In this document: positions 1 to 18,543 of the stretch, one piece after another
Layout of the letters: each line of letters opens with the position of its first letter
Numbering within the stretch: the first letter of the stretch is position 1
DNA from: a virus
IMG/VR virus record: IMGVR_UViG_3300045988_078088
Location: 1-19,154 of that record
Strand: one strand, 5' to 3'
Length of the DNA: 19,154 nucleotides
Translations under genes and position numbers: made by a program
The notes under the pieces: model-generated
Databases searched by the model: none
What the model was told of the DNA's origin: nothing
The model's input: the letters and a program-made list of their open reading frames with translations, nothing else

Positions 1-107
1 GAGGGGTGTGGGTTTGTGTGAAGATTTTCCCTTGTGGTTTTTTTTATTTGTGTATTATTTTTTTTTGTTCTGCGTCTTCGTTGTCACTTTGTTTTGTTTA
101 TAGTCCT

Positions 108-136
108 ATTGTATTTTTTTTACGCCCACCTGTCAA
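108..136 (-). promoter_or_regulatory. Outward-facing sigma70/sigmaA-like promoter inside left ITR (TTGACA-17 nt-TACAAT)
   Basis: The minus strand reads TTGACA (136-131), then ggtgggcgtaaaaaaaa (17 nt), then TACAAT (113-108). The predicted start is near position 100, running off the genome end. Confidence 0.4.
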
Positions 137-170
137 GTTTTTTTATTTTCGGGCGTGTCGTTTTTTTTTA

Positions 171-185
171 TTGACACTGTGTCAA
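171..185. promoter_or_regulatory. 15-bp perfect palindrome TTGACACtGTGTCAA carrying TTGACA on both strands (operator and/or -35 element)
   Basis: ttgacac t gtgtcaa at 171-185. TTGACA at 171-176 is followed by weak -10-like TATATG (192-197, 15-nt spacer) or TATGCA (194-199, 17-nt spacer). A mirror copy lies in the right ITR at 18970-18984. Confidence 0.35.
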
Positions 186-218
186 TGGTTGTATATGCAA
201 CAATCCGTGTCCCGCTAA

Positions 219-259
219 GTTACGGTAACGTAACCGTAACCTACCGACCGGTAGGTAGG
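219..259. promoter_or_regulatory. Two adjacent dyad-symmetry elements in the ITR; the second is terminator-like on the inward strand
   Basis: The first dyad pairs GTTACGG (219-225) with CCGTAAC (234-240) around an 8-nt loop. The second pairs CCTACC (240-245) with GGTAGG (254-259), with ACCGGT at its centre. The second is followed by tgtttttattatttt. Confidence 0.4.
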
Positions 260-312
260 TGTTTTTATTATTTTGCTTTGTTTTGTTTTCGGACGTGTCG
301 TGTTTTTGTTTG

Positions 313-321
313 TGTTATGCT
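313..321 (+). promoter_or_regulatory. Extended -10-like element TGtTATGCT in ITR, upstream of the first gene at each end
   Basis: TG-t-TATGCT at 313-321 lies about 33 nt upstream of ATG 354, with a GGAAAGGAAA purine-rich RBS at 340-349. The mirror copy at 18834-18842 (-) lies upstream of ATG 18801. Confidence 0.3.
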
Positions 322-353
322 GTAGTTATCGGTTTCAAGGGAAAGGAAATAAA

Positions 354-473
354 ATGAACACCGTTGTTTCGTTTGATTGGTGGAACAAGTCCATCACAGT
401 GGCATTCACTGACTACAATACCGTGCACTATTTTTCGATGGGCAATTACGTTTTTGCTTGCCAAGCGTGTTGA
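354..473 (+). CDS. Hypothetical early protein, 39 aa (MNTVVSFDWWNK...)
   Basis: The ATG falls exactly at the ITR boundary and is preceded by a purine-rich RBS inside the ITR. The longer track ORF from 273 only adds translation of the T-rich ITR. I recognised no homology. Confidence 0.4.
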   Translation: MNTVVSFDWWNKSITVAFTDYNTVHYFSMGNYVFACQAC

Positions 474-487
474 AAAGGAGAATTGAT

Positions 488-556
488 ATGCTTGCTTCTG
501 TCCTTGTTGTCTGCGCGTGTGTTGTTGGTGTTGTTGTCGTTTTTGGTATGATATAG
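488..556 (+). CDS. 22-aa hydrophobic peptide (MLASVLVVCACVVGVVVVFGMI)
   Basis: A strong RBS, AAAGGAG (474-480), lies 7 nt before ATG 488. The peptide is entirely hydrophobic. It is below the ORF-track cutoff, so I translated it by hand. Confidence 0.3.
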   Translation: MLASVLVVCACVVGVVVVFGMI

Positions 557-570
557 GAGTGGTTGCTTTG

Positions 571-759
571 ATGGTCTTCCGGTTCGTTGGGTGTGCGATT
601 TTGTTTTTCGCGCTCGTGGTGGGTATTTCTCTCGCTGTTGTCGGCTTGAGTGATTCCACGCATGATGATTTTCGTGACGTGATGTTGCTTATTGCCATCA
701 CGGTGACATTGTGTTTGGTTGCCGCCGCCCTACTGATTTTTCTTTTGACATGTGATTAG
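571..759 (+). CDS. Small membrane protein, 62 aa, two predicted TM helices
   Basis: AGGAG at 555-559 precedes ATG 571, which is in frame with track ORF 517..759. Two hydrophobic stretches (FVGCAILFFALVVGISLAVVGL and VMLLIAITVTLCLVAAALLIFLL) flank a short acidic loop. Confidence 0.45.
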   Translation: MVFRFVGCAILFFALVVGISLAVVGLSDSTHDDFRDVMLLIAITVTLCLVAAALLIFLLTCD

Positions 760-773
760 GAAGGATGATTGAA

Positions 774-995
774 ATGCGTTATGGCGATATTCGTGTTGGA
801 AAGTTCAATAGCCCTCATATGGGTGGTGATGTGTGTATTGAATACTGCACGCACCAACATCTGTTTTACTTGGCGTACGGCTTGACTGCGGGAACCGCAC
901 GATGTGGTTATGATCCGACGAAGGCTAATGAAATGCGTGCTATGGTGTTGGATGCTATGGATATTGCGTCCACGCCACTCATGGATAGGAGTTGA
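774..995 (+). CDS. Hypothetical early protein, 73 aa
   Basis: This is track ORF 765..995. ATG 765 abuts the GGAAGG RBS (759-764), so ATG 774 with a 9-nt spacer is more plausible. I recognised no homology. Confidence 0.4.
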   Translation: MRYGDIRVGKFNSPHMGGDVCIEYCTHQHLFYLAYGLTAGTARCGYDPTKANEMRAMVLDAMDIASTPLMDRS

Positions 996-998
996 GCC

Positions 999-1202
999 AT
1001 GTATTTTCGTGGTTGGATACATTCATGGACATGCGGCACGTGCCCGGACGCTGACAGTTATTGGCGATTGCGAGCGTTTTGGGCCGGAAGACAACATAAG
1101 CGGAGCGCCACTAATCCGCCGAAACGGTGCCCCCGTCCTGACGTGTGGCTGAACATGTGGCTGTATGGTGACAGTGATTTCGTGGACGAATTGGAGTTTT
1201 GA
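999..1202 (+). CDS. Hypothetical early protein, 67 aa
   Basis: AGGAG (987-991) lies 7 nt before ATG 999. The protein has an acidic C-terminus (GDSDFVDELEF). The overlapping alternative frame 904..1152 also looks codon-like but lacks a credible start after 995. Confidence 0.3.
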   Translation: MYFRGWIHSWTCGTCPDADSYWRLRAFWAGRQHKRSATNPPKRCPRPDVWLNMWLYGDSDFVDELEF

Positions 1203-1205
1203 AAC

Positions 1206-1382
1206 ATGTATAGCACTTTCGTGGCTCTCGCATATTTGAGGGATGCGCGCAAACCGCCTATCGAAGTTGGCTACGCCCCCTCGTACAAGGATGCGGCAGA
1301 CTTGATTAAAAAGTGGGCGGCTATCCGCTCTCATACGGAGAATATCAGCTATTTCCGCGTTGAGGAGCGGTATTATGTTTAG
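1206..1382 (+). CDS. Hypothetical early protein, 58 aa (MYSTFVALAYLRDARKPP...)
   Basis: Hand-translated, since it is below the track cutoff. GGAG lies 9 nt upstream. The 3' end overlaps the next gene's start by 8 nt. Confidence 0.4.
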   Translation: MYSTFVALAYLRDARKPPIEVGYAPSYKDAADLIKKWAAIRSHTENISYFRVEERYYV

Positions 1383-1890
1383 GCGCGGTGATGACAGGCG
1401 GCCTATCTACCGCATGCGTGACTTCGATGACGCGATCATGGAAAGCAAACGTATTGCCCGTGCTACGAAAGGCCATAAGCGTGAGCTGAACTTGAAGCGG
1501 TTTGATATGGGGTACGGCGATTTTGAAACGTGCTGCCGTGCCGTGAACATGCTATGCGAACTGTGGCGTGACACGCCTAGTGAATGGTTTTCGCAAGCGA
1601 TTGTTACCGTGTCACAGATCGCGGGCAGTCTGGGCACTTGGGACAGTTTGGCGACTGCATTGTCTAGGACGTTCGATGTCGAATATCTTGACGGCTTCAT
1701 CAATCCGCCTAACCTGATCGCATGGTGCGCCGTCTGCGCCGTCAAGGGCGGCACCTCATACGACTGCTGCACGATTTTCGATACTCCGCAAGCGCAAAAC
1801 TTGATTATCGCAGTGTTCAAAAATTTTGACAGACTGGACACGAAACGATATAATGACAATGAATTGCAAAAAATCTTACAAGGAGTGTGA
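1375..1890 (+). CDS. Hypothetical early protein, 171 aa, Cys-rich
   Basis: This is track ORF 1360..1890. GAGGAG (1362-1367) lies 7 nt before ATG 1375. I recognised no homology. Confidence 0.6.
   Translation: MFRRGDDRRPIYRMRDFDDAIMESKRIARATKGHKRELNLKRFDMGYGDFETCCRAVNMLCELWRDTPSEWFSQAIVTVSQIAGSLGTWDSLATALSRTFDVEYLDGFINPPNLIAWCAVCAVKGGTSYDCCTIFDTPQAQNLIIAVFKNFDRLDTKRYNDNELQKILQGV
1826..1854 (+). promoter_or_regulatory. Perfect-consensus sigma70/sigmaA promoter TTGACA-17 nt-TATAAT driving the replication module
   Basis: TTGACA at 1826-1831, a 17-nt spacer at 1832-1848, and TATAAT at 1849-1854. It sits inside the 3' end of CDS 1375..1890, about 40 nt upstream of the AAGGAG RBS and ATG 1895. Confidence 0.6.
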
Positions 1891-1894
1891 ACAC

Positions 1895-2209
1895 ATGGCT
1901 AGGACTAAAACCGATATCTTCCGCACGCGCGTCTATGCCGTGCTCAAGGGCATGGAATTGGCGGACGGCGATTTCATGGAAGCCGAACACGTTATCGACG
2001 GACGCTTGAAGGATGCACGCGCGTATTCGATTCGTGCGAAGAGACTGTTTCCGAATTTCATTCCGCGTTCCATTGAAATTTTTTCGCAAAAAGTCTCTAT
2101 GAACGAGGAAACTTTCTACAAGTATGCAACCTTTGAGGAACCGCAGAAGTGGAACCCTGAAGAGCATACAAAACGACACGCCGACGTTGAAAATAACGAA
2201 GACGTGTGA
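1895..2209 (+). CDS. Putative phi29 p6-like dsDNA-binding (histone-like) protein, 104 aa
   Basis: AGGAG lies 9 nt before ATG 1895, which is in frame with track ORF 1826..2209. Size, acidic C-tail and position immediately upstream of the SSB match phi29 gene 6. Loose collinear similarity by eye: IFRTRVYAV...DG...RAKRLF...SMNEETFYKYAT. Confidence 0.4.
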   Translation: MARTKTDIFRTRVYAVLKGMELADGDFMEAEHVIDGRLKDARAYSIRAKRLFPNFIPRSIEIFSQKVSMNEETFYKYATFEEPQKWNPEEHTKRHADVENNEDV

Positions 2210-2215
2210 TATAAA
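2207..2215 (+). promoter_or_regulatory. Extended -10-like element TGaTATAAA overlapping the stop codon of the p6-like gene
   Basis: TG-a-TATAAA at 2207-2215. It is followed by a small GCAA-loop hairpin (2219-2226 pairing with 2231-2238) and then the SSB RBS. Confidence 0.3.
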
Positions 2216-2270
2216 AGATTTTAGGCGCAAGCCTGAAAACAAATAACAACAATCTAGGAAAGGTTAAACA

Positions 2271-2708
2271 ATGGAAAACAACAGCAACACCGCACTCGTC
2301 GCATTCAATACCGAAAACACCGAACTCGGCACTGTCCAGCACTTCATCGACACTTCCACTCGTGAAGGCAAAATCAAGCTTTACAGTGCATTGCAGAACG
2401 CGGAAAAGCTTGACGAACATCTTAACGAGCCGTTGAACATGACAAACGCCGTCGCTCAGGCGGTGCAGGTGACGGACGACCAGACGGGAGAAATCTCCAA
2501 CACCGTGCGCGTCATCATCGTGACCGATGATAACAAGGCGTACGCGGCCACCTCACCGACTCTCGCCGCCGGACTCAACACCATGTTTGGCATCTTCGGC
2601 ACTCCGAACACTTGGACGGAACCGCTGTGCATCAAGGTGGTCGAACGCCGTTCTCGCCGTGGCTTCAAGTTTTTCAGCATTGAGCCGGTGGACGAAGAAG
2701 CGAAGTAA
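2271..2708 (+). CDS. phi29 p5-like single-stranded DNA-binding protein, 145 aa
   Basis: Collinear matches by eye to phi29 p5. EGKIKLYSA matches EGQIKIFNA, NAVAQAVQVTD matches NAIAQYKQVSD, and IKVVERRSRRGFKFFSIEP matches VKVVQGTSSKGNVFFSLQL. The RBS is AGGAAAGG. The gene sits between the p6-like gene and the TP candidate, as in phi29. Confidence 0.6.
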   Translation: MENNSNTALVAFNTENTELGTVQHFIDTSTREGKIKLYSALQNAEKLDEHLNEPLNMTNAVAQAVQVTDDQTGEISNTVRVIIVTDDNKAYAATSPTLAAGLNTMFGIFGTPNTWTEPLCIKVVERRSRRGFKFFSIEPVDEEAK

Positions 2709-2711
2709 ACT

Positions 2712-2720
2712 TGCTATAAT
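2712..2720 (+). promoter_or_regulatory. Extended -10 promoter element TGcTATAAT
   Basis: TG-c-TATAAT at 2712-2720, 4 nt after the SSB stop codon and upstream of the TP candidate. Confidence 0.35.
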
Positions 2721-2740
2721 CGCAATGTGAGTTCACCATG

Positions 2741-2763
2741 AGAGCACCCTTGTCGGGTGCTCT
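2741..2763 (+). promoter_or_regulatory. 9-bp stem-loop in the leader of the TP-polymerase message
   Basis: AGAGCACCC (2741-2749) pairs with GGGTGCTCT (2755-2763) around the loop ttgtc. There is no clear U-tract, only tctctctatc. It lies between the 2712 promoter element and the RBS AAAGGA at 2773-2778. Confidence 0.4.
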
Positions 2764-2786
2764 CTCTATCTGAAAGGACTGCAACC

Positions 2787-3848
2787 ATGTCACGGAAGAG
2801 GAAGAAGCCAGCACCCCGCGCAGTCGTATCACAGAACTATCGCACACACCAAAAGCCGGATACCAGCAATGTCGCCATCAAAGCCGATAGGCAACAACGC
2901 AAGCACATCAAGAAAATTCAAGCCGCGCGAGCCCGCGCCGCACGCGACATTAAACAACTCGGCTCGTACTCACACTCGAATCTCGCCAAAACCGCAGACA
3001 AACAACTAGTCAACATTGCCAAAACGTTAGGCAAAGAGTGGGAGCGGCAGAAGAAACAGGCCATAGCGGAAGCGAAAGCAACACCATACCATGCCACCGC
3101 CGTGGAGAAGCCGACGAAAAAAGACTACATGTTCGCCCAACGCACGCCCATCACGGACGCGCAGATCGAAGCGGAACCGGTGGCGAAACGACGTAAACTG
3201 CTCAGACAGCAGCAGCGGAAAATCAATGCGGCACGACGGAAAATCAACGAATGGAACAAAGCTCAGGCCATGCCCGCAAAAAGCGTGTACGAGCAACGCG
3301 TGGCCGAAATCACCGGAACCACCGGCGAGGGATTCGGACGCAATCAGATCATTCCATCAAAACTCACCGATTTTCTGCAAATGGCGAACGTGTTGAGCGA
3401 TGAAGCGTTTGTGCGCTCACAACTGGAAAGCGGACACCGTAACGAACTGCTTGAGCAGATGCATGACGCCGCTGAAATACTGGGATTGCGCACCGAACAG
3501 AAACACGAACCATCCAAAAAGCGGGGAACGGGCAAGCGGGATAAAGACTTGTATGGCGAGCATGAATGGCCATCATACATGTCACGCGGACGCTATGAGG
3601 TTTTCGAGAAAATCTTGGCCACCACGCTCGGCTCGAAACGATTGAAACGATTCCGTCAACTATCGGCCGCGCAAAAGAGGGTTTTTATCGAACAGACGGA
3701 CGCCCCCCGTATTGTGTTCGACTGGACGGTATACGATCCAGTTCGGCACGGTTTCACATCGATATTCCGAAACAATGGTGAGGGTTATCAGCGTTCCCGC
3801 AAGCAGTTCGACAGGTGGATGACGGAAGCGGGCGCACTGGAAAAGTAG
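2787..3848 (+). CDS. Candidate terminal (priming) protein, 353 aa, highly basic
   Basis: The gene lies immediately upstream of the protein-primed DNA polymerase, the position of phi29 gene 3. It has a Lys/Arg-rich N-terminus (MSRKRKKPAPR...) and multiple basic helical stretches. AAAGGA lies 8 nt before ATG 2787. I saw no direct sequence similarity to phi29 TP. Confidence 0.5.
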   Translation: MSRKRKKPAPRAVVSQNYRTHQKPDTSNVAIKADRQQRKHIKKIQAARARAARDIKQLGSYSHSNLAKTADKQLVNIAKTLGKEWERQKKQAIAEAKATPYHATAVEKPTKKDYMFAQRTPITDAQIEAEPVAKRRKLLRQQQRKINAARRKINEWNKAQAMPAKSVYEQRVAEITGTTGEGFGRNQIIPSKLTDFLQMANVLSDEAFVRSQLESGHRNELLEQMHDAAEILGLRTEQKHEPSKKRGTGKRDKDLYGEHEWPSYMSRGRYEVFEKILATTLGSKRLKRFRQLSAAQKRVFIEQTDAPRIVFDWTVYDPVRHGFTSIFRNNGEGYQRSRKQFDRWMTEAGALEK

Positions 3849-3875
3849 TAGACGGCAAACAAGGGAAGTTATACC

Positions 3876-5327
3876 ATGACCACGCAAGAAAAAAGGGTTG
3901 GATTATGGTGCGCTGATGACGTCATACGCTTTACGGACGGCACCGTCCTGCGTGACATCACCGCGCCCAATCGCCTTTTGGCGTCCATCATGTCAGGCGG
4001 CAAACTCACCGTCTACGTGACTAATCCAGAATTGCTTGAACCGTTTATGGCTCACGTCGTACATTCTCTCCCGCACAACGAGCATAATGCTAACCTGAGC
4101 TGGGATGCGATAGTGTCGAAAAAAGGCAAATTTTTCAGTTTTAGCGTGCGTATCGACCGCGAAAATTCCGCACGATTTTTCGACATATCGAATCTTCTGC
4201 GGGAGAATTGCCGTCTCACCATGACCGATACGCAATTGCTCAACATTCTGCGTGAGTATGACAACCGTGGCTTGTGCAAAATCACGGCGGGCGGGGCAAG
4301 TATGGAGGCGTTCGCGTCCGGCGAGTGGAAATGGTATTACGACAAATTTCCACAACTCGAAACCGACGTCAAAAAGTCATTGCATGACGCTTATATCGGC
4401 GGTTTAATGTTGGTCAAGGAAGGGACGTATGGCAAGGCCATCGACGTGGACTGCAACAGCATGTATCCGAGCATTCTGCGTGACGAATGGCTGCCGTGGG
4501 GGGAGCCGGAACCATACAACGGCGAGTACGAGGAAGATAGCGATATGCCGTTGCATTGTGATGAACTCACGTTTCGCGCGGAACTCAAACCGGACGGATA
4601 CCCCTTTCTGCTCGACAACCGCAGCGTGTACGGCCTCAACCGTCTCACCTCTACACGCGGTTACGTCACGCGCGTGCTCACCGACATTGACCAAGAACTG
4701 CTCTATAAGAATTATGAAGTGAGTGTCTACAAGTATGTTAGGGGGTGGAAATTCCGCCGCTCCAAGGGTTTCTTCCGTTCGTTTATCGACGAATGGGGGG
4801 ACTTGAAGCAGAAGGCGACTGGCGAGAAACGGCAAATGGCGAAACTCATCATGAACGCACTCGTCGGCAAAATGGCGAGTCTGCCGAAAGGCGCCGTCAT
4901 GCTCCCACTATCAAAAGACGGCATAACATTGGATTGGGATGTCGCACAACGTGAAGAATCGAATCTGAAAACCGACTACTTGCCCGTGCCTATTTGGGTC
5001 AACACCTACGCCCGCCGAAAGCTTATGGACGTGTGCCACGCGAACGCCGACCGGCTACTGTATGCGAACACGGACGGGTGCATCCTATCCGGCTGGGAAC
5101 CCGTGAAGTCGTGCGAGATACACTCGACCGAACTCGGCAAGTGGAAGATCGCCGCACGATACGAAAAACTTACCGTCCTTGGAATGAACCGTTATCAAGG
5201 ATGGCGAGATGACGGCGAAGTGGATGTCTGCATGGCCGGAAACATGTTTTCGGAACCCATTCCGTACGAGCGATTCCGGCATGGCGCGCAAGTCATGGAT
5301 GATTACGGAACCGTGATTATGTTATAA
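3876..5327 (+). CDS. Family-B protein-primed DNA polymerase (phi29 gp2-like), 483 aa
   Basis: Collinear with phi29 DNAP from residue ~136 to the C-terminus. ITAGGASMEAF matches MTAGSDSLKGF. Motif A is DVDCNSMYPS (nt 4443-4472). LPWGEPEPYNGEY matches LPYGEPIVFEGKY. FFRSFIDEW matches LFKDFIDKW. Motif B is KLIMNALVGK (4842-4871) and motif C is YANTDG (5061-5078). Confidence 0.93.
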   Translation: MTTQEKRVGLWCADDVIRFTDGTVLRDITAPNRLLASIMSGGKLTVYVTNPELLEPFMAHVVHSLPHNEHNANLSWDAIVSKKGKFFSFSVRIDRENSARFFDISNLLRENCRLTMTDTQLLNILREYDNRGLCKITAGGASMEAFASGEWKWYYDKFPQLETDVKKSLHDAYIGGLMLVKEGTYGKAIDVDCNSMYPSILRDEWLPWGEPEPYNGEYEEDSDMPLHCDELTFRAELKPDGYPFLLDNRSVYGLNRLTSTRGYVTRVLTDIDQELLYKNYEVSVYKYVRGWKFRRSKGFFRSFIDEWGDLKQKATGEKRQMAKLIMNALVGKMASLPKGAVMLPLSKDGITLDWDVAQREESNLKTDYLPVPIWVNTYARRKLMDVCHANADRLLYANTDGCILSGWEPVKSCEIHSTELGKWKIAARYEKLTVLGMNRYQGWRDDGEVDVCMAGNMFSEPIPYERFRHGAQVMDDYGTVIML

Positions 5328-5328
5328 T
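5320..5328 (+). promoter_or_regulatory. Extended -10 promoter element TGtTATAAT overlapping the polymerase stop codon
   Basis: TG-t-TATAAT at 5320-5328. The polymerase TAA stop is at 5325-5327. Confidence 0.35.
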
Positions 5329-5334
5329 CGTCAT

Positions 5335-5503
5335 GTCTTGTGAGCGTCGATTTTCGACTGGGAGCAACATGAGTCGGATTGCCACGGCTGAAAACGCCGC
5401 CGAACATGAAATCACTATCGTGGCGGTAGTGCCCTACGATTTTCGACTCGCGCTCTGATAGGACAGTTAGACCCCCGCGTGATTGCGGGGGTCATTTTAT
5501 TTT
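5335..5503 (+). ncRNA. Candidate small structured RNA (possible pRNA analogue), or alternatively a 30-42 codon micro-ORF
   Basis: The unit is bounded by the promoter element at 5320-5328 and the intrinsic terminator at 5470-5503. No + strand ORF reaches 60 aa. Long-range complementarity exists between 5342-5350 and 5443-5455, and between 5378-5387 and 5418-5427. See findings. Confidence 0.25.
5470..5503 (+). terminator. Rho-independent terminator ending the early region
   Basis: GACCCCCGC (5470-5478) pairs with GCGGGGGTC (5485-5493) around a 6-nt loop, followed by ATTTTATTTT. Confidence 0.8.
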
Positions 5504-5511
5504 CCGCCGCA

Positions 5512-5520
5512 TGATATAAT
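5512..5520 (+). promoter_or_regulatory. Extended -10 promoter TGaTATAAT: candidate late promoter
   Basis: TG-a-TATAAT at 5512-5520 lies directly after the early terminator and about 37 nt upstream of the scaffold ATG, whose RBS AAGGAG is at 5545-5550. Confidence 0.5.
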
Positions 5521-5556
5521 TTTAGTGAAAACATTGCTAATCGTAAGGAGTTTTGC

Positions 5557-5844
5557 ATGGCAGACACAAATACCGACGGAGAGGAAACCACTACTCCGCC
5601 GCCGACCGAAGAGGAACAGCAGACGGAAACTGTGGACGACGAGGTTAAGCCGAAAGAGGAGCCGGAACCGGAACCGAAGCAGGAACCGGACGTTTCCGCA
5701 CGACTTGACGCGATTGAAAAGGAATTGGCCGCATTGAAAGCCATGATGGATACGCTCGGCTACAACGACCCCGCACCGTCTGATAACGACAATGACGGCG
5801 ACAACGACAATGATGGCGAGTCCATCGAAGATTTGTTTGACTAA
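5557..5844 (+). CDS. Putative scaffolding protein, 95 aa, strongly acidic
   Basis: The gene lies immediately upstream of the capsid gene, as phi29 gp7 does, and is of similar size. It has a central helical segment (ARLDAIEKELAALKAMMD) flanked by D/E/P-rich tails, and a strong RBS. Confidence 0.55.
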   Translation: MADTNTDGEETTTPPPTEEEQQTETVDDEVKPKEEPEPEPKQEPDVSARLDAIEKELAALKAMMDTLGYNDPAPSDNDNDGDNDNDGESIEDLFD

Positions 5845-5865
5845 AATAGGTTAGGAGATAACATA

Positions 5866-7584
5866 ATGTCTAATGTTCGACCGCTGGCCGGTAAAGGTGA
5901 CGTTGAGATTTTCAACGCCGTGCGTTCCGCCACTTCACCGCAGTTCCAGACCCGTATTCCGTCCGCGACGCAAGGCAATATCCGCAACGCGGTGGACACC
6001 ATGCGCAACTTCCCCTACCTGCGAGACGAGTTTACGGGGGTGTTAATCCAGAGACTGATTGGTCTTTACGTCCAACATGCGGACTGGGATGACCCACTGA
6101 AGCTGATTGGTTCGCCGCGCACCCTCAAGCGCTATGGCAGTACCTACGAGCAGGCCGCAGTCGGCTTGGTCAAGGCACGCACTCGTAACTTCAACGAAGA
6201 ATATTTGGGCGATGACGTGTATGGCCGCTACTCGCTGCCGACCGCTTCGGTGTTCCACCCTCTGACTTTCGACCACTATTACCCCGTCACCATTCCGGAA
6301 GACGCTTTGCTTACTGCATTCGACGGCGAAAGCGGCATGTCGGATTACATCGCTGAAATCATGAACGCGCCTATCCTCTCGGATAGAAACGACATGTACC
6401 TGATGAAGACGCAGACGTTTGCCGAATACGCTCGTAAGGGTGGCTTCTACCGCGTGCATACCCCCGACGTTGGTAAGGCCGACTCGACCGAAGCGGACGC
6501 GAAGGGCCTGCTACGTCTTATTCAGCAGGTGGCGAACGAATTGAAGGCGTCGCCAATGAGCGCCATGCCGCGCTACAACGCAATGAGCTGGGTGACTCCG
6601 TGGCGCAATAACGAAGCCATCCTCTTCGCCACTCCGCAGGTTATCGCCGCGCTTAACGTCGAAGCCCTCGCCGCAGCGTTCAACATCGACAGGATCAACG
6701 TACCGTATCGCATTATCCCGATTCCAGAGGATATGTTCGGTATCGGCGGTGCGGCTGGTAAGGTTCAGGCGATTCTGACCACAGAAGACTTCTTCTTCTG
6801 CTGGGACGAGATGTTGGAAACGACGAACAGCCCAGTGAACCCGATTGACGGCACGCGCAACATTTTCTACAAGCATCGTGGCAGCATCACCCCTAATCCT
6901 TTTGCTAACGCCATCCTCTTTTGGACGGGCGAAGGCTCCAACGAGTCCGTGACTCCGCCGAACACGCTCACCACCTCTACGCCTAAGTTCGAACTGCGTG
7001 TGAAGAAGTATGGTCAGCCTGCCATCACTCCGCAAGACGTGTCGCGTGGTGACTTGGTGCAGGTGGTTTCCACTATCACGAGCGCCAACGAGGAGACGGC
7101 TACGTTCCAGCCAACCGGCATCAAGTATGCTGTCGAGGGTGCCACCTCGCAGTTTACGACCATCGACAACGACGGTATTCTGCGTTGCGGCCTTGACGAA
7201 ACCGCCGAAGTGCTGAAAGTCACGGCTCAGGCAACCTACATCAATCCGGCCACGCCTGAAATCGACCAGACGGTTTCCGCCGCACTGTCCGTGCCGGTGG
7301 TTGGCGCTTGGCTTGGTGGTTGGAAAGCCGGAGCCATCGAGTCTATTAAGATTCAGGGCGAAAAGACGGTCAAGGTCAAGGGGTATGTAGCGCTTAAGGC
7401 CATTGCCACCAAGACGGACGGCAACACCGCGGACGTGACCAACCTCGCCATGTGGACTGTGGACGATAAAGCGACCATCACGCCTAACGGCGTGCTGACC
7501 GGAACCACTGCCGGTACCGCTAACGTTTCCGTGAAGTTTGCGGGAGCCACCGGAACGGCACAAGTCACCGTCACCGCACAGTGA
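5866..7584 (+). CDS. Major capsid protein (phi29 gp8-like) with C-terminal Ig-like (Big_2-type) domain(s), 572 aa
   Basis: Collinear matches by eye to phi29 gp8. EIFNAVRSA matches [30 protein letters not shown] matches [31 protein letters not shown] matches VLAKAFNMNR, and [10 protein letters not shown] matches VSRFANAVAF. The C-terminus ...[28 protein letters not shown] is typical of Big_2. Confidence 0.93.
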   Translation: [572 protein letters not shown]

Positions 7585-7601
7585 TGACAGCTAGCCGGTA
7601 A

Positions 7602-7642
7602 AATAGGTGTGGATAGACTTTTATCCACACCTATTATTTTTT
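7602..7642 (+). terminator. Rho-independent terminator/attenuator after the capsid gene
   Basis: AATAGGTGTGGATA (7602-7615) pairs with TATCCACACCTATT (7622-7635) around a 6-nt loop, followed by ATTTTTT. The next gene's RBS follows directly with no promoter in between. Confidence 0.8.
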
Positions 7643-7653
7643 AGGAGGACCTT

Positions 7654-9882
7654 ATGAGCGCGAACGACTTGCCGATTAATTTCTCGTACGCCAAGTGGAC
7701 ACCGAACACCAAATTCAAGCTTTGTAACGTGCCGTGGGATATGGGTTACAGGGATATTGTCAAATGGAATAGGCAAGCCCAGAAAGAGTATTTCGACGGT
7801 TTGGATGGCATCGAGTTCACGGACTGCACGATGGCGAAATACGGACTGCCGGTGCGACTGCCGGTGCCGTTCGTGCAAGCGTCGCGATACAATTATTTAA
7901 TTGCAACGAATGATTATGACTTCGATACACCCCGTTCATGGTATTACTTTATTCAGACGTGCGATTACGTCAACGCCCACACCACACAATTGAACATCCA
8001 ACTTGATGTGTGGCAGAGTTTCCAACATGACATCCAACTTGGCAACGCCTATGTGGAACGGGGGCATATCGGGGTTGCGAACGAGAACGCTTGGAAAGAT
8101 TACGGACGCACCTATCTGGACTTGCCTGAAGGACTCGATACCGGCAAGGCCATGGTGGTTACCGGACAGCAGTATAAAAGTCTGATTGGCGAAACGAACG
8201 GGTACACCACCTTCGGCGTGATCGTGGCGTCAACCACAAAACTGGACACTGACCCCGGCACGGCGACCGCGCCGAAAACCACGTGCGCGGACGGAAGCGC
8301 CTTTGAAAATCATACGAACGGGACTGCTTTATACTATTTCTCGGACGCTTTGGACTTCCTCGCCGTGATGGGCGCTGGCGCGGAATATCCTTGGGTGACA
8401 CAGGGTATTTGCGGAATCTACGCCATACCACAGCTCCCCGACTCATTGCTGGAAAACCAGCAGAAGCCGGGCGTGTTCTTTAATCACATGATCGATTGGC
8501 GCGGCGACTGCTACCGGCTTGAGATACGGCATAATGACGCCAGAAGTCGCTACGCCGACATCATCCATATTGCAAATTTTCGTGATAATTTCAAGCTACC
8601 GGAACGATACAAGTATCTCCAAAAATTCCGCACTGCACCATATGCGATACTGGAGTGTTCTTGTCTTAACGGCACTGTGATTACCTACAATCCTGAGCAG
8701 ATTCCGAGTGCTGACCTGACTATCCGGGAGTCGTGGGACTATGCCCCCCCTTCTCCGCGACTTAATTTTTATCCGCGCGGATACAACGCAGGTGATGTCA
8801 GCGAACAGTCGCCGTTGCCGAACGATTCCGGATTGCCGATTGATTCCGGCGAAATGCTCAACGCGAGTTTCGGTATCACCAATTTTCCAACCTTTATGAC
8901 GGTTAACAACGGTAGCGCCTTGGCCTTGGCTAATAGTGCCTACACGAGGGCGTATGCGCAACAGTCGGCCGATTGGGCACAGCAGAAAACGCAAATGGGC
9001 ATCAACAACGCCTACGCTCAAGCGCAACTCGGCACCCAGTACGCGAGTGCGCAGAACCAGCTTGGCACCAGCAACCGTAACGCAATGATGTCTATCAACA
9101 ATCAAGCCGCGCAGATGTCGGCCGACCTGACGCTGAAAAACCTGAGCTTCGGCAACCGAATGAACCAACTCAATACCATTGGCTCCGGTGTGGCGAACGC
9201 AGTCGGTTCCGCAGTCGCCGGCAGCGTTGGCGGCGTAGTCGGCGCCGTGGCGGGCACGGCCATCGGCGCGGTGGCGAACCAAATGTCGTACAACAATGCC
9301 GTAGACTCCAACAGTCAGCAATTGTCTAACACGTTGGCAACGAACGGCGCAACCACCTCACAGTCGAATGCCTACAGCCTTGCACAAACAAACCTCAGCA
9401 ATCAGCAGACTATGCAGTTTGCGGACATGAACCGGCAACTCGCGCAGGCCACCGCGCAAGGCGATTATGAAAACACTATCGCCGGTATCAACGCGCAAGT
9501 GCAACAGACTCAAACCATACCCCCTACCACGTCCGGCGCGTTGGGTGGCGACGCGTTCAATCTTGCGAACGGACTAATCGGCGTCATGGTACGGTTCAGG
9601 CAGATACCACCGGCCGCCATGCGCTCCATTGGCGAAGTGTGGCTAAGGTTCGGGTATTACGTGCAGCGATTTATGCAACTGCCGGAAAATCTCATGGCAA
9701 TGAGTAATTTCACTTACTGGAAACTCCACGAACTGTACATTCGTAGCTCGACGTGTCCGGAAGAGTACCGATTGACAGTCAAAGGTATTTTTGAGTCCGG
9801 TGTGACGGTGTGGAATGACCCTGACAAAATCGGCGTGACCGATTACGCGGATAATACGCCGCTATCAGGTATCGCATACTAG
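7654..9882 (+). CDS. Tail knob protein (phi29 gp9-like), 742 aa
   Basis: At the N-terminus, WYYFIQTCDYVNAHTTQLNIQLDVWQSF matches phi29 [29 protein letters not shown]. At the C-terminus, IPPTTSGALGGDAFN...FGYYVQRF...GVTVWN matches IPPQLTKMGGNTAFD...YGYKINRV...GITLWH. A central Gly/Ala-rich hydrophobic stretch lies at the position of the gp9 membrane-active loop. Confidence 0.85.
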   Translation: MSANDLPINFSYAKWTPNTKFKLCNVPWDMGYRDIVKWNRQAQKEYFDGLDGIEFTDCTMAKYGLPVRLPVPFVQASRYNYLIATNDYDFDTPRSWYYFIQTCDYVNAHTTQLNIQLDVWQSFQHDIQLGNAYVERGHIGVANENAWKDYGRTYLDLPEGLDTGKAMVVTGQQYKSLIGETNGYTTFGVIVASTTKLDTDPGTATAPKTTCADGSAFENHTNGTALYYFSDALDFLAVMGAGAEYPWVTQGICGIYAIPQLPDSLLENQQKPGVFFNHMIDWRGDCYRLEIRHNDARSRYADIIHIANFRDNFKLPERYKYLQKFRTAPYAILECSCLNGTVITYNPEQIPSADLTIRESWDYAPPSPRLNFYPRGYNAGDVSEQSPLPNDSGLPIDSGEMLNASFGITNFPTFMTVNNGSALALANSAYTRAYAQQSADWAQQKTQMGINNAYAQAQLGTQYASAQNQLGTSNRNAMMSINNQAAQMSADLTLKNLSFGNRMNQLNTIGSGVANAVGSAVAGSVGGVVGAVAGTAIGAVANQMSYNNAVDSNSQQLSNTLATNGATTSQSNAYSLAQTNLSNQQTMQFADMNRQLAQATAQGDYENTIAGINAQVQQTQTIPPTTSGALGGDAFNLANGLIGVMVRFRQIPPAAMRSIGEVWLRFGYYVQRFMQLPENLMAMSNFTYWKLHELYIRSSTCPEEYRLTVKGIFESGVTVWNDPDKIGVTDYADNTPLSGIAY

Positions 9883-9884
9883 AT

Positions 9885-9924
9885 ATAATGGAGAGAGCAT
9901 ATTAAGCTCTCTCCATTATTTTTA
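9885..9924 (+). terminator. Rho-independent terminator/attenuator after the tail knob gene
   Basis: A 14-bp stem pairs 9885-9898 (ATAATGGAGAGAGC) with 9906-9919 (GCTCTCTCCATTAT) around the 7-nt loop atattaa, followed by TTTTT. Confidence 0.7.
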
Positions 9925-9936
9925 AGGACGGTGATT

Positions 9937-10881
9937 ATGGGTAAGCGCAATAACGCGCGTAAAGCCGCGCATTGGGATAACCAGAGCGTGCTTGGCTCAA
10001 TGTGGGGCAACCTCAATCTCCCTGAAATGCGCCAAAGTCTCCGCATCAACCAGTACATGAAACTGATTGAAATGTTGGCGGTGTCGCGTTTCAAATGGAT
10101 TAACCTGCCCCCCTATATCGATGAAAGATATTTGGAACTAACCCTATTCGAGAATGGCTTGGCCCTCTTCTTCCCTGATGAACGTAAGGGAGTACGCCGT
10201 TTTATGGTCACGTCGGGCAATATCGGCGGAGTCAACAACTACAATAATCCAACATCATTCCAGCCGGTAGCCACGAATTACTCTCACCCGCAAATCGGCT
10301 CAAAAGAATGTGTTCCTATTTGGGACAATCAGCTGCGTTGCACCATGATCGATGTCATGTGGAATTACGCCACGCGTTTAGCCATCGCGGACAGAGCACT
10401 GGACGTCAACTTGGATAACATTTCGGTGCCGTTGATTATCGCCACGTCCGAAGCCAACAAACTCACCGCACAGAATCTTATTAAGGCGCGTGAAGACGGA
10501 GACCCTTATATCTACGCGTATGACAGCGCGGATATCACCGGAATGTTTCAAACCTTTCCAAACATGACGCCCTTTATGGCGGATAAAATCATTACGACGA
10601 AAACGCAGATTTGGAACGAGCTTGTGAACTACCTCGGTATCGACAACAGTACGACGGAAAAGAAAGAACGTCTGCTTGAGTCGGAAGTGACGGCTGGGAA
10701 CAGTCGTACGAACGTGTTCCGCCTGAGCTATCTTAAGGCGCGTCAACAGGCGTGCGATACGATTAACCGGTTGTGGCCGCAAATGGCGGACTTAGGCAAA
10801 CCAATAAGCATTGAATGGAACGACACTACTTCGGGCGGTTTGCTGGATGTTGACGGAAACAAGGAGGAAGACGAACGATGA
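9937..10881 (+). CDS. Head-tail connector / portal (phi29 gp10-like), 314 aa
   Basis: [16 protein letters not shown] matches phi29 [46 protein letters not shown] matches [46 protein letters not shown] matches FLKSREEACEKINELY. AAGGA lies 8 nt before ATG 9937. Size is close to gp10. Confidence 0.93.
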   Translation: [314 protein letters not shown]

Positions 10882-11690
10882 CGCAGGACTTGAGCATGTA
10901 TGCCGTCAAAGACAGCATGGCGGATTACACTTTGACCCTTGGCAATCTTATTGACCGAGGGCTTGACACGGACGAAAAACTGCACCTATCCTCGCAGTAT
11001 TACCCGATTTTCGACGAAAACTATCGTGCGAAATTGAATGAAAAAATCGTGGCGCACTACGCACTACGCGAGATTGGTTCGGAAACACCACAAATGTTCG
11101 TGTTTTATCTAGGCAGGACAATGCGCGAGCAGATGGACTATTTCAATCAACTGTATTTGTCCGCTCAACATAAGTTTGACCCATTTATCACTTCCGATAT
11201 CAAGCAAACTATGGACTCTACCAGCACGAACGAGTCCAGCGGAAAATCGAGCGGCACACAGTCGAACGAGTCTACGGCAAACAGCACGTCCGACACCACC
11301 GCCGACAATTCGTCAATGACGTTTAATTCTGAGTTTCCGCAGACACGTATTGACGATTTCAAGCAATTCGCCACCAGCGCATCGCAGACGGACTCTACCG
11401 GCAACACGCATACATCCTCCAAGCAGGACAGTAGCACCACCGCGTCCAGTATCAGCAACACCGATTACGCGCATTCGTCCGACAAAGGCAATAGTATGTC
11501 GCATACGATCGGCACCAGCGGTTCGCAATCACAGCTGTTGCAGGACTGGCGTAATACCATGATCAATATTGACATGATGGTTATAAACTCGCTCGAAGAT
11601 CTGTTTTTAGGCATGTGGGGTAGTGGCGACAACATGACCAACGTGCCGCAGCTTTACAGCACCTCGTTAGCCTACAATCTCGGTCACTAG
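10878..11690 (+). CDS. Lower collar protein (phi29 gp11-like), 270 aa
   Basis: The ATGA overlap with the connector stop suggests translational coupling. The motif YYPIFDENYRAKLNEKIVAHYALREIGSET...YFNQLY matches what I recall for gp11-family lower collar proteins. There is a central Ser/Thr-rich stretch. Position matches phi29 gene 11. Confidence 0.7.
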   Translation: MTQDLSMYAVKDSMADYTLTLGNLIDRGLDTDEKLHLSSQYYPIFDENYRAKLNEKIVAHYALREIGSETPQMFVFYLGRTMREQMDYFNQLYLSAQHKFDPFITSDIKQTMDSTSTNESSGKSSGTQSNESTANSTSDTTADNSSMTFNSEFPQTRIDDFKQFATSASQTDSTGNTHTSSKQDSSTTASSISNTDYAHSSDKGNSMSHTIGTSGSQSQLLQDWRNTMINIDMMVINSLEDLFLGMWGSGDNMTNVPQLYSTSLAYNLGH

Positions 11691-11721
11691 AGTATACTTG
11701 ACATTGACAGATTGGAGGATT

Positions 11722-12321
11722 ATGAACGGGATAAACCTATGCGCCGCACCGCTCGACATTGACCCGCGACAGCGGTATTTCACTACCGTGCAACCGTTCT
11801 CGTACCGTGACACGCTTACCGTGCTCGGTTACGTGCAGGAAGTGGCCGAACATGTGGACGAATTACGCGAACAGCTCGACAACCTCGCCAAGGACGAAAA
11901 CGCGGACATCGAAGCCATCAAACAGCTGATAGCCGGTTTCAACGAACAGTTCGAGCGCATCAACAAAACCTTGGACGATCTGGAAAAACAAGTCGGACAA
12001 TATGAAGACTCTGCCTTAACCTATAATCCGACTCGTGGCAAGTATGAAGACTCGAAAAACACGAATCGAGACATGTACCGTGAGCTTGCCGTTTTCGGCG
12101 CACGCGTCAACCAAATGGCCCAACTATCCACGCCAATGGCCGCAGCGCACACGTGTCTTGAGTTCGCCGTGCTCGGCAACAAAACCATTTTCCACAACGA
12201 TGAGCCACGTATCACGCCACGCGACGTACACGTGGATGACGGCGAACCCGTCAATCCGCTATCGGTTGAAAATCTCGCCAATGGCGTCGTGGTCAATAAT
12301 TTTATGAAAACCGCAAAATAA
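11722..12321 (+). CDS. Structural protein with central coiled coil, 199 aa (function unknown)
   Basis: This is track ORF 11698..12321. ATG 11722 follows GGAGGA, though the spacer is short. There is a heptad-like acidic helix (VAEHVDELREQLDNLAKDENADIEAIKQLIAGFNEQFERINKTLDDLEKQ). It lies in the tail/appendage block. Confidence 0.6.
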   Translation: MNGINLCAAPLDIDPRQRYFTTVQPFSYRDTLTVLGYVQEVAEHVDELREQLDNLAKDENADIEAIKQLIAGFNEQFERINKTLDDLEKQVGQYEDSALTYNPTRGKYEDSKNTNRDMYRELAVFGARVNQMAQLSTPMAAAHTCLEFAVLGNKTIFHNDEPRITPRDVHVDDGEPVNPLSVENLANGVVVNNFMKTAK

Positions 12322-12339
12322 TAGGAAGGATTACGGCAA

Positions 12340-12693
12340 ATGACCAGCAAAACCCCAAATTATAATCTTGAAAAGTATGATGCGACGGACGCGCCCAACC
12401 TTGAGGGGCAATACAATCGCTCAATGGACATCCTCGATACGACGCTGAAAACGCAGTCGGATAAGATTGACGCCATTCCGACGCCGGAGTCACTGCCGGA
12501 AGGATTGAGCGAGTTCGCCACCGCTCTCGGATTGAGCACCGCTAACGCCAACGCGCTCGGCACCGCGCTTAATCATCTCCTCAACCGTGTCCCCGCAACC
12601 GGTGGCGGACAGTTCACCGTCAAAAACCTTAATGACACAAAGGTCACTGCGGAGGGTCTGCCGTTCGTTTCCACCACTGCTTCAGGAGATTGA
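12340..12693 (+). CDS. Appendage/fibre-related protein, 117 aa, carrying the shared N-terminal motif
   Basis: The RBS is AGGAAGGA. N-terminal NYNLEKYDATDAPNLEGQYNRSMDILD is paralogous to the N-termini of the next two ORFs. Confidence 0.65.
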   Translation: MTSKTPNYNLEKYDATDAPNLEGQYNRSMDILDTTLKTQSDKIDAIPTPESLPEGLSEFATALGLSTANANALGTALNHLLNRVPATGGGQFTVKNLNDTKVTAEGLPFVSTTASGD

Positions 12694-12698
12694 CGGTT

Positions 12699-12881
12699 AT
12701 GAAAGACAGTCAGCAGACCACGCCCGTGGACTCCGCCGCATACGATGTGACGCGACATTTTGGACTGCCGCTCTATAACGACGTAACACCAATGGACATG
12801 CGCGACGGCTACAACCGCGCCATGCGCATGATCGACCAAATTCTCAACCAACTGCAAACTCAGATTCGAGAAAAGGACTAA
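12699..12881 (+). CDS. Appendage/fibre-related miniprotein, 60 aa, consisting almost only of the shared N-terminal motif
   Basis: CAGGAG lies 10 nt before ATG 12699, in frame with track ORF 12690. It contains FGLPLYNDVTPMDMRDGYNRAMRMIDQ. Confidence 0.5.
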   Translation: MKDSQQTTPVDSAAYDVTRHFGLPLYNDVTPMDMRDGYNRAMRMIDQILNQLQTQIREKD

Positions 12882-12886
12882 CGGCA

Positions 12887-14800: not shown

Positions 14801-14814
14801 CAGACTATCCTGAG

Positions 14815-14852
14815 TAATAGCCATGCCACTATAATTGGCGGCATGGCTATTA
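14815..14852 (+). promoter_or_regulatory. 13-bp perfect stem-loop whose 3' arm contains the start codon of the tail lysin
   Basis: TAATAGCCATGCC (14815-14827) pairs with GGCATGGCTATTA (14840-14852) around the 12-nt loop actataattggc, followed by cttttg. ATG 14843-14845 lies inside the right arm. Confidence 0.55.
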
Positions 14853-16066: not shown

Positions 16067-16142
16067 AAGTGTGGTATACTTGACAATGGCAGTGGTTATG
16101 TGATGACCTTTCCTCTTAAACGGCTGCCATATTGATAGGTTG

Positions 16143-16178
16143 GTGGAGGGCGTGCGAGTCATGGCGCACGCCCTCCAC
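16143..16178 (+). promoter_or_regulatory. 14-bp GC-rich perfect stem-loop just upstream of the ATPase RBS
   Basis: GTGGAGGGCGTGCG (16143-16156) pairs with CGCACGCCCTCCAC (16165-16178) around an 8-nt loop. There is no U-tract. The RBS AGGAGG (16186-16191) and ATG 16201 follow. Confidence 0.5.
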
Positions 16179-16200
16179 TAGTTCTAGGAGGGTTGCAAAC

Positions 16201-17268: not shown

Positions 17269-17283
17269 GAAGGAATAGCAACA

Positions 17284-17646: not shown

Positions 17647-17819
17647 ACACAATCATCTCATATTTGATACTGACCGGGCTTACGGCGATTGGAATTGCGA
17701 TGTGGTTCGCATCCTTCGCCGTCCAATATCCGCAGTTCCGTCGTGCCGCATTCATCTTCATGCTTATCACGGCAACGCCGTGGGTGACGGCAACATTATA
17801 TCTGACACAAACCATGTAA
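17643..17819 (+). CDS. Small 2-TM membrane protein, 58 aa (possible holin partner/antiholin)
   Basis: Hand-translated: MNTIISYLILTGLTAIGIAMWFASFAVQYPQFRRAAFIFMLITATPWVTATLYLTQTM. The ATGA overlap with the holin stop suggests coupling. It ends 9 nt before the endolysin ATG. Confidence 0.5.
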   Translation: MNTIISYLILTGLTAIGIAMWFASFAVQYPQFRRAAFIFMLITATPWVTATLYLTQTM

Positions 17820-17828
17820 GGAGCGAAA

Positions 17829-18494: not shown

Positions 18495-18502
18495 CATAAA
18501 GA

Positions 18503-18531: not shown

Positions 18532-18543
18532 ATTGGTTATATA

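Follow-up and report, generated by a model that had tools for sequence, protein, structure and literature searches.

The stretch analyzed here, 19,154 nucleotides (nt) of viral DNA corresponding to positions 1 to 19,154 of the IMG/VR record IMGVR_UViG_3300045988_078088 (hereafter the window), carries directly behind its DNA polymerase gene a short transcription unit that we examined as a candidate packaging RNA (pRNA). The pRNA is the textbook example of an RNA that serves a viral DNA-packaging motor as an indispensable structural component, and it is a workhorse of RNA nanotechnology. In the window, the gene for a type-B, protein-primed-type DNA polymerase lies on the plus strand at 3876-5327, and the unit occupies the one mid-genome non-coding gap of appreciable size, which begins at the stop codon of the polymerase gene (5327) and reaches to a scaffold-like gene (5557). 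It opens with the extended -10 promoter TGTTATAAT (5320-5328, plus strand), which overlaps the 3' end of the polymerase gene (its final two codons plus the stop) just where the initial annotation had placed it. It closes with an intrinsic terminator (5470-5503, plus strand) made of a 10-base pair (bp) G+C-rich stem, a UGAU loop and the tail AUUUUAUUUU; the stem at 5470-5493, followed by ATTTTATTTT, had been called a strong terminator and is the top-scoring one of the whole window. The promoter of the late operon, TGATATAAT (5512-5520, plus strand), forms the downstream boundary of the unit and lies outside the RNA. Transcription from the first promoter would start at about 5334-5336, with the start predicted 1-2 nt 5' of the first helix (P0), and end at the terminator. 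In silico, we are thus dealing with a separately promoted and terminated short gene on the same strand as the polymerase gene and 3' of it. The closest cultured relatives are the Bifidobacterium phages BP1 and BD811P1-3 (nucleotide identity 76-79%), and the matching ~230 nt in the BP1 and BD811P3 records carry no annotation.

Homologous regions were collected from 80 IMG/VR contigs, five GenBank phage records, 14 ENA/Logan contigs (picked for polymerases just 76-80% identical to those already collected) and 37 metagenome contigs retrieved with a pattern derived from the RNA itself. The sets of distinct sequences numbered 84 for the coding and promoter analyses, 92 for the pairing counts, and 109 for the loop contact and conservation. 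The element is found directly 3' of the polymerase gene in all collected regions, and the terminator and the late promoter are present in all relatives, with the latter 186-206 nt 3' of the first -10 element. At that first element, TGNTAT(A/G)AT is kept in 83 of the 84 distinct relatives. The final leucine codon of the polymerase is always YTA in the relatives, even though CTA and TTA together account for just 13.5% of the genome's leucine codons, which argues that selection acts on the promoter itself. The 6 nt that separate the -10 element from the first helix of the RNA are poorly conserved (57%). The motif TGNTATAAT occurs three times in the genome, always on the plus strand (2712-2720, 5320-5328 and 5512-5520), against 0.3 expected occurrences. 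The three sites stand upstream of an open reading frame (ORF) at 2757-3848, at the RNA and at the late operon, and the genome appears to use all three as extended -10 promoters. One perfect TTGACA-17-TATAAT promoter is also present, at 1826-1854.

The terminator stem covaries among the relatives (CCCCGCG/CGCGGGG vs CCCTCC/GGAGGG), whereas its loop sequence GUGAUU (5480-5485) is constant across all of them. A constant loop on a freely covarying stem suggests an extra role, e.g., a contact with protein or RNA, and by analogy the terminator hairpin may be the counterpart of pRNA domain II. A mimic of clustered regularly interspaced short palindromic repeats (CRISPR) was also considered for the CCCCGCG/CGCGGGG stem and was rejected, as the stem sequence covaries freely in the relatives.

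The core of the RNA is better conserved than the DNA of the polymerase gene (87.1% vs 81.7%), and this holds for 103 of 109 loci. A scan with the RNA pattern returned 37 matches, all in metagenome contigs of at most 20 kb that are mostly labelled human gut, and the pattern was absent from the genomes of 185,579 bacterial and archaeal species. Since the pattern is confined to phage-sized metagenome contigs, the RNA is neither a host RNA nor a prophage relic; with zero matches in the species genomes, a host-RNA mimic and a prophage relic were both rejected.

No plus-strand ORF of 60 or more amino acids (aa) lies within the unit, as the initial annotation had stated. It had also offered a micro-protein as an alternative, of 30 aa from the ATG at 5369, which has GGGAG 4 nt 5' of it, or of 42 aa from the ATG at 5333. 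Both versions are refuted by the 84 distinct homologous regions. The ATG at 5369 is kept in 40 of the 84 and replaced in the other 44 by ATA, ACG, ACA, GGT, etc., the frames from its position terminate after anything from 1 to 47 aa, and length differences are not a multiple of three in 64 relatives. The frame from 5333 is conserved no better. In 27 of the 84, there is no plus-strand ORF of 25 aa or more anywhere in the unit, and the kept start, frame and stop and the synonymous bias of a small protein-coding gene were not found. Substitutions that save a peptide while breaking the helices would have spoken for coding, and the reverse was seen, i.e., the helices are preserved and the peptide is not. 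We regard the chance that the unit encodes either micro-protein as negligible.

The fold was obtained with RNAalifold from a plain MAFFT alignment, and the sequences were later realigned with a covariance model; alignments with the partner strands shifted ("slid") served as one control and 500 shuffles as a second. In a second MAFFT alignment, which was trimmed and not fitted to any structure, 96.9% of the cells were paired vs 34-50% in the slid controls, with 14 compensatory pairs vs 2-6. The covariance-model alignment of the 92 distinct sequences gave 98.3% paired cells and compensatory changes in 20 of 42 pairs (slid controls, 3-7); each helix has at least one compensatory pair, and not one of the 500 shuffles matched any observed measure. 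The covariation analysis that the initial annotation had proposed across the homologous regions of relatives therefore supports a structure, and it is specific to the plus strand because many of the pairs are G-U.

The structured core, ~131 nt within the ~165-nt RNA, is closed by its 5' and 3' ends and organized around a three-way junction (all positions on the plus strand). The outer A-like helix P0 (GUCUU/AGGAC; 5335-5339 with 5460-5464) is 97.6% paired, with two of five pairs compensatory, and P1 (GAGCGU/GCGCUC; 5342-5347 with 5450-5455) is 100% paired, with G-C replaced by A-U in eight rows and C-G by U-A in one. Next come the inner A-like helix (GA at 5349-50 with UC at 5443-44; UCG at 5354-56 with CGA at 5437-39) and P2 (GGG/CCC; 5360-62 with 5432-34), both more than 99% paired and showing, in divergent relatives, compensatory A-U to G-C, U-A to C-G and G-C to A-U changes. 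Together, these four segments make a closing helix of 19 bp with internal loops, in which every segment is 97.6-100% paired and carries compensatory pairs; its internal loops (CGAUUUUCGACUGGGA, GUGCCCUACGAU) show very strong sequence conservation. The 3' strands of P2, the inner A-like helix, P1 and P0 span 5432-5464, on the same evidence as their 5' partners. Inside the closing helix, two unpaired junction strands (5363-5367 and 5409-5412) flank the C-helix-like arm P3a/P3b (5368-70 and 5373-77 with 5400-5408), which is 94-95% paired with six of eight pairs compensatory. This arm is interrupted by a one-sided 7-nt bulge, AUUGCCA (5378-5384), which resembles the CE loop of pRNA and faces no unpaired base on the opposite strand, and it is capped by the E-like hairpin P3c (5385-88 with 5396-99), a 4-bp CGGC/GCCG stem that is 99.7% paired with one compensatory pair. 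The 7-nt loop of P3c reads UGAAAAC in the window and UGAGAAU in most relatives. The D-like hairpin P4 (5413-19 with 5425-31) has a 7-bp CACUAUC/GGUAGUG stem, 99.8% paired with five of seven pairs compensatory, and the loop GUGGC (5420-24). P4 ends at 5431 and the 3' strand of P2 restarts at 5432, without any linker; 5 nt separate P0 from the terminator hairpin.

This fold revises part of what had been read from the single sequence. The closing helix proposed at the outset survives in its outer half, GAGC/GCTC, which is part of P1. Its inner half, GTCGA (5346-5350) with TCGAC (5443-5447), does not, as the pairs peculiar to it are kept in 27-78% of the relatives, no better than in shuffles, and covariation instead favors G5346-C5451 and U5347-G5450 plus the additional outer helix 5335-5339/5460-5464. 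The 12-mer CGATTTTCGACT was found twice as claimed, at 5348-5359 and 5437-5448. In the relatives, the second copy is unconserved except for CGAU..UC, and mostly UCAAC or AUCAC stands there. The exact repeat is peculiar to the window genome, where it allows the RNA an alternative fold of greater stability. Compared with shuffled sequence, the unit as a whole folds better (z = -3.7), and the single-sequence minimum free energy (MFE) fold of the core, with a z of only -1.65, selects window-specific pairings.

A search for complementary loop pairs, another check suggested by the initial annotation, brought out a contact between the bulge and the P4 loop: the last four bases of the bulge, GCCA (5381-5384), are complementary to the last four of the loop, UGGC (5421-5424). 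Both had been assigned to a helix between 5378-5387 and 5418-5427. As secondary structure this helix fails, the pairs peculiar to it being kept no better than in shuffles, and its flanks fall within the covariation-backed hairpins P3c and P4; its core is retained as a tertiary or kissing contact. Among the 109 distinct sequences of the Bifidobacterium clade, the first contact pair is G-C in 88, G-U in 15 and A-U in six, and never mismatched or A-C; the A-U form is present in several separate lineages, always with U in the loop. The second pair is C-G in all 109, the third C-G in 103 and U-G in six, and the fourth A-U in 99 and mismatched in 10 (9%). When divergent members of the clade were added, all kept [G/A]CC[A/U]:UGG[C/U] except two with the loop CGGC. 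We take the variation of the first pair within the clade as modest evidence for a selected contact. By our estimate, the chance of a 4-bp Watson-Crick match is ~0.4% in the exact phi29 register and ~3% in any register.

In phi29, neighboring pRNAs pair through their "interlocking loops", AACC (45-48) and GGUU (82-85), and the window RNA can be compared with this molecule element by element. The consensus of the Rfam pRNA family (RF00044), projected on phage PZA, comprises a 22-bp A helix that includes a 3-nt bulge, 1 nt, a 9-bp C helix, a 9-nt bulge confined to the 5' side and ending in AACC, a 4-bp E stem with the 6-nt loop UUGAGU, 0 nt, UUU, a 6-bp D stem with the 5-nt loop UGGUU (ending GGUU), 0 nt, and again the A helix. 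The window RNA runs from its A-like helix through 5 nt, 8 bp, a 7-nt 5' bulge ending in GCCA, 4 bp with a 7-nt loop, 0 nt, 4 nt, and 7 bp with a 5-nt loop ending in UGGC, followed by 0 nt and the A-like helix. The two thus agree in the order of the elements, the one-sidedness of the bulge, the 4-bp apical stem, the 5-nt loop and the two zero-length junction strands, and their complementarity is in the same register (GCCA:UGGC vs AACC:GGUU). In both, the two ends of the RNA pair into a bulged closing helix, against which a D-type hairpin abuts at a three-way junction, and a short linker leads to a 3' hairpin domain. Counted from the junction, the arms measure 8 and 7 bp in the window RNA and 9 and 6 bp in phi29. 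The counterpart of P3c in phi29 is CUGA-UUGAGU-UCAG, and the apical loop of the bulged arm shares a UGA(A/G) motif (UUGAGU in phi29, UGAAAAC or UGAGAAU here); the phi29 loop is written in upper case, i.e., as highly conserved, in the Rfam consensus.

Phages of Curtobacterium (Ayka and six others) and Arthrobacter (Mendel, Swim, Tillums and Anjali) have the same collinear genome plan as the window, and in these phi29-like phages a gap of ~170-195 nt lies just 5' of the scaffold gene. At this position, equivalent to that of the Bifidobacterium RNA, RNAalifold, run independently for each group, returned the same architecture: a long closing helix, an arm bulged by 6-7 nt on its 5' side and continued by a 4-bp G/C stem whose loop reads UUGAAA or UUGAAU, then another hairpin set directly against the closing helix, and finally linker and terminator. 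Compensatory changes were seen in 14 of 52 pairs in Curtobacterium and in 12 of 51 in Arthrobacter; with the loop contact included, the Curtobacterium fold was 94.9% paired vs 34-47% when slid, with 15 compensatory pairs. The apical loop carries the UGA(A/G) motif here as well (UUGAAA in Ayka, UUGAAU in Mendel). The bulge also starts alike (GGAUUGCA vs GGAUUGCCA) and the terminator arrangement is the same. A difference in layout is a small ribbon-helix-helix-type ORF that separates the polymerase gene from the RNA. The Ayka RNA (4205-4365), between a 78-aa ORF and the scaffold gene, is unannotated and has a strong terminator; six further Curtobacterium phages, Prophecy, Pize and Reje among them, conserve it with compensatory changes. 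The Mendel RNA (4934-5090), 3' of the ribbon-helix-helix gene, is likewise unannotated. The Tillums record has an annotated ORF that partly covers the RNA.

The complementary bases are always terminal in the bulge and in the loop of these RNAs. They are a palindromic UGCA:UGCA in Ayka and Prophecy and CGC:GCG in Reje and Trapezoid, which amounts to a U-A to C-G double change at the first contact pair. In Mendel, Swim and Anjali they are AGCU:AGCU, and in Tillums GCU:AGC. As the loop pairs differ by group and yet stay complementary, the contact covaries between phage groups. The complementarity in Mendel reaches 6 nt (GCAGCU:AGCUGC), and its single-sequence MFE fold therefore joins both loops intramolecularly. 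A covariance model built from the Bifidobacterium RNAs gave weak full-length matches to the Curtobacterium RNAs, at the correct place (~10.7 bits, E ~0.3), which is suggestive of common descent of the two.

The closest outgroup is that of the BadAztec phages of B. asteroides (ATPase identity 44%). These have a structured element after the polymerase gene (15925-16047, minus strand, in BadAztec4), and where that gene stops, TGCTATAGT or TGCTATAAT precedes the element. It starts with GUGAGCG and ends with CGCUCAC, like the window RNA, and shows compensatory changes between BadAztec4 and BadAargau2 (two sequences). Behind the element come a G+C-rich hairpin that lacks a U-tract and then, directly, the ribosome-binding site of the following gene; there is no second promoter. 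In Actinomyces phage Av-1, ORF7 lies 3' of the polymerase gene and is genuinely coding. At 4471-4611, upstream of ORF8, Av-1 has a promoter that is separated by ~65 nt from a hairpin, GGUAGGCUAGGAAC-GUAA-GUUCCUAGCCUACC, with its U-run, after which comes a ribosome-binding site, and this promoter-hairpin unit is conserved in Av-1-like oral phages; we considered it as the same RNA and rejected it.

The window also encodes the proteins with which a pRNA would have to work. Its perfect 357-bp inverted terminal repeats (1-357 and 18798-19154), far longer than the 6-bp repeats of phi29, mark it as a phage genome that is linear, complete and of the protein-primed type. Each repeat holds the hairpin ACCTACCGACCGGTAGGT and a TTGACA-17-TACAAT promoter-like site. 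The initial annotation had noted a gp16/gp10-type motor, and both proteins turn out to be full-length homologs. The gp16-type encapsidation ATPase (16132-17268, plus strand; Pfam Podovirus_Gp16, E = 8e-45; BLASTP against PZA gp16, 6e-45) covers positions 2-319 of the 331 in the profile, and its alignment with PZA gp16 (30% identity) extends through the C-terminal domain. The gp10-type connector (portal) gene is also on the plus strand (Pfam Phage_connector, E = 1.3e-39; BLASTP against PZA gp10, 8e-34). The N-terminus of its product, MGKRNNARK, is a basic cluster that resembles the MGRKRSN of phi29 and PZA and is identical or nearly so in BP1 and BD811P3; in phi29, the corresponding connector segment has been linked to the binding of pRNA. 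The ATPase ORF was called by the program with a TTG start and 378 aa, and homology to gp16 and to the BP1 protein sets in at residue ~19-30, so that the real start is probably an internal ATG (MTLQTLDE...). Also on the plus strand are the genes for a Phi29-type major capsid protein (Pfam Phi29_MCP, E = 8.6e-57) and for a gp9-like tail knob protein. Between these two, within the late operon, lies a strong terminator-like hairpin with a U-run (7602-7635), which probably sets the ratio of capsid to downstream transcripts. The ORF at 2757-3848 (363 aa) has no Pfam match and is found at the position expected of the terminal protein.

The pRNA-like interpretation held up in every computational test that we ran. 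The unit is conserved, non-coding and covarying, and its topology matches the RF00044 consensus. Covariation establishes the predicted fold (A-like helix, three-way junction, C/E-like arm and D-like hairpin). On comparative grounds, we consider it likely that the unit is a stand-alone non-coding RNA of ~165 nt, a divergent counterpart of the pRNA that functions as a packaging RNA, and we file it as a putative new, divergent kind of prohead RNA rather than as a member of RF00044. By analogy with phi29, the GCCA:UGGC contact would join neighboring molecules, which would thereby make up a ring on the prohead's portal vertex. The E-like hairpin and the junction region would contact the portal and the capsid, the D-like hairpin would stack directly on the closing helix, and the A-like helices would project outward and dock the gp16-type ATPase. 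The docked ATPase would then translocate the terminal-protein-capped genome, and the RNA would depart after packaging. A broader proposal, toward which we lean only slightly, is that RNA-scaffolded motors are ancestral or widespread in phi29-like phages, and that the Bifidobacterium, Curtobacterium and Arthrobacter RNAs are true homologs of the pRNA that form rings via lineage-specific loop pairs.

Several observations weigh against a packaging RNA. The RF00044 model finds no match in the window at the gathering threshold, nor at E <= 10 on 5250-5600, and none at E <= 10 in the Curtobacterium and Arthrobacter counterparts, while the same model scores the PZA pRNA at 144.7 bits. Conversely, the covariance model built from the Bifidobacterium RNA returned nothing significant in PZA, nor in Av-1 and BadAztec4. 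Within the Bifidobacterium clade the contact is nearly invariant, with one of four pairs covarying and the fourth mismatched in 10 of 109 sequences, and it could instead be an intramolecular pseudoknot. The BadAztec element does not obviously adopt a pRNA-like fold (two sequences only), and Av-1-like phages lack an RNA of the window type at the post-polymerase position. On the window sequence, finally, the comparative fold comes to -31.5 kcal/mol vs -44.5 for the MFE fold. Single-sequence folding is misleading here, since the energy model prefers the idiosyncratic pairings of the window. As for RF00044, genuine pRNAs have only ~12% sequence similarity while retaining structure and function (PMC5340915), so that the miss lowers the case for membership in RF00044 and not that for an RNA that works like pRNA.

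Could the RNA do something else? It may be a structured phage small RNA with a role outside packaging (a regulator, a protein decoy or an anti-defense RNA) whose pRNA-like topology arose by convergence. The unit is autonomous from promoter to terminator, the strongly conserved internal loops of its closing helix (CGAUUUUCGACUGGGA, GUGCCCUACGAU) resemble a protein-binding site, and the RF00044 miss fits such a role as well. Set against this, no Rfam family of any type credibly matches the window RNA, the weak matches being driven by the terminator, and host-RNA mimicry is excluded by the absence of the RNA from bacterial genomes. Convergence, moreover, would have had to recreate no fewer than six specific features of pRNA in three groups of phages, each with a gp16/gp10 motor, and we find this explanation unlikely. 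Still less probable, in our judgment, is a cis-acting switch between early and late expression, either a processive antitermination RNA in the manner of HK022 put or Bacillus EAR, or a stabilizer of the 3' end of the early mRNA. In the antitermination version, polymerases starting from 5320 would pass the terminator at 5470-5503 and the one behind the capsid gene. Such a switch would suit the location exactly between the early and late operons, the terminator that directly follows, the further terminator at 7602-7635, and the BadAztec element, which continues into late genes without a U-tract terminator or second promoter; early-operon transcripts also have to cross the RNA region. Like put and EAR, the unit is a structured RNA just 3' of a promoter and just 5' of a terminator. 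It differs from them in the second promoter that follows, and because this promoter stands directly 3' of the terminator in all relatives, read-through is unnecessary. No match to EAR or another Rfam family was found, nor does the RNA look like the leader of an operon whose terminators it would suppress. The put and stabilizer models also leave the three-way junction and the complementary bulge and loop, which covary between groups, unexplained, and to our knowledge neither HK022 put nor Bacillus EAR has a three-way junction with complementary loops.

If the packaging RNA reading is correct, the RNA-dependent motor would be far more widespread than thought, extending to Bifidobacterium phages (abundant in human gut metagenomes) and to those of Curtobacterium and Arthrobacter. 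How pRNA arose and whether it is necessary, a long-standing question, would become directly testable in cultured systems, as BP1, BD811P1-3, Ayka and Mendel have all been isolated. There would also be grounds for a new Rfam family and for annotating the ~230 nt left blank in these genomes. Until recently, pRNA was the sole natural RNA shown to form homo-oligomers above dimers (PMC12990946), and the present RNAs would add new three-way junctions and new sets of interlocking loops, including G+C-rich and palindromic ones, i.e., new natural self-assembling RNAs from actinophages of gut, soil and plant-associated origin.

A 2024 review of phi29-like phages describes pRNA as unique, so far as is known, to phi29 and its Bacillus relatives (PMC11476376). 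Unverified predictions from outside Bacillus do exist. A pRNA has been proposed for Cp-1 and was not recovered with the pRNA covariance model (PMC6266182). The Av-1 record carries a "packaging RNA" as misc_RNA at 16295-16402, overlapping three minus-strand ORFs near the right end; we found no comparative support for it, and its location differs from that of the window RNA. Both are, like ours, claims for a pRNA in non-Bacillus phi29-like phages, and the published descriptions of BP1 and Ayka mention none.

Compared with the phi29 group (Bacillus phages phi29/PZA, B103, M2/Nf, SF5 and GA-1), the window belongs to the same type of phage, with terminal-protein-primed replication, a gp16 ATPase and a gp10 portal, and its hosts are Actinobacteria instead of Bacillus. 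The match to the phi29 pRNA in position, size and autonomy, from which the candidate had been proposed, is upheld in silico. The RNA measures ~165 nt vs 174 nt in phi29, and in both the window and phi29/PZA its gene lies 3' of the terminal-protein and polymerase genes on the same strand. In PZA, the pRNA is at 4883-5000 and the polymerase gene, on the same strand, at 2306-4024. The RefSeq record of PZA (NC_001423) has its left early arm inverted relative to the real genome at 1-5200, an artefact also noted elsewhere (PMC6266182), and the PZA pRNA thereby appears in the middle of the record beside the scaffold gene. In reality, the phi29 pRNA gene is at the left end, whereas that of the window is mid-genome beside the late promoter, owing to the collinear genome. 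The loop pair of the window is G+C-rich, with a predicted duplex energy of -4.4 kcal/mol for GCCA:UGGC vs -2.1 in phi29, its junction linkers are 5 and 4 nt long vs 1 and 3 nt, and its closing helix has highly conserved internal loops where phi29 has a CCA bulge. The direct abutment of the D-like hairpin on the closing helix recalls both crystal structures of the phi29 pRNA, in which A and D are coaxially stacked (PMC5340915). Finally, the interlocking loops of the Bacillus pRNAs covary among pRNAs, just as the contact described here covaries between the phage groups.

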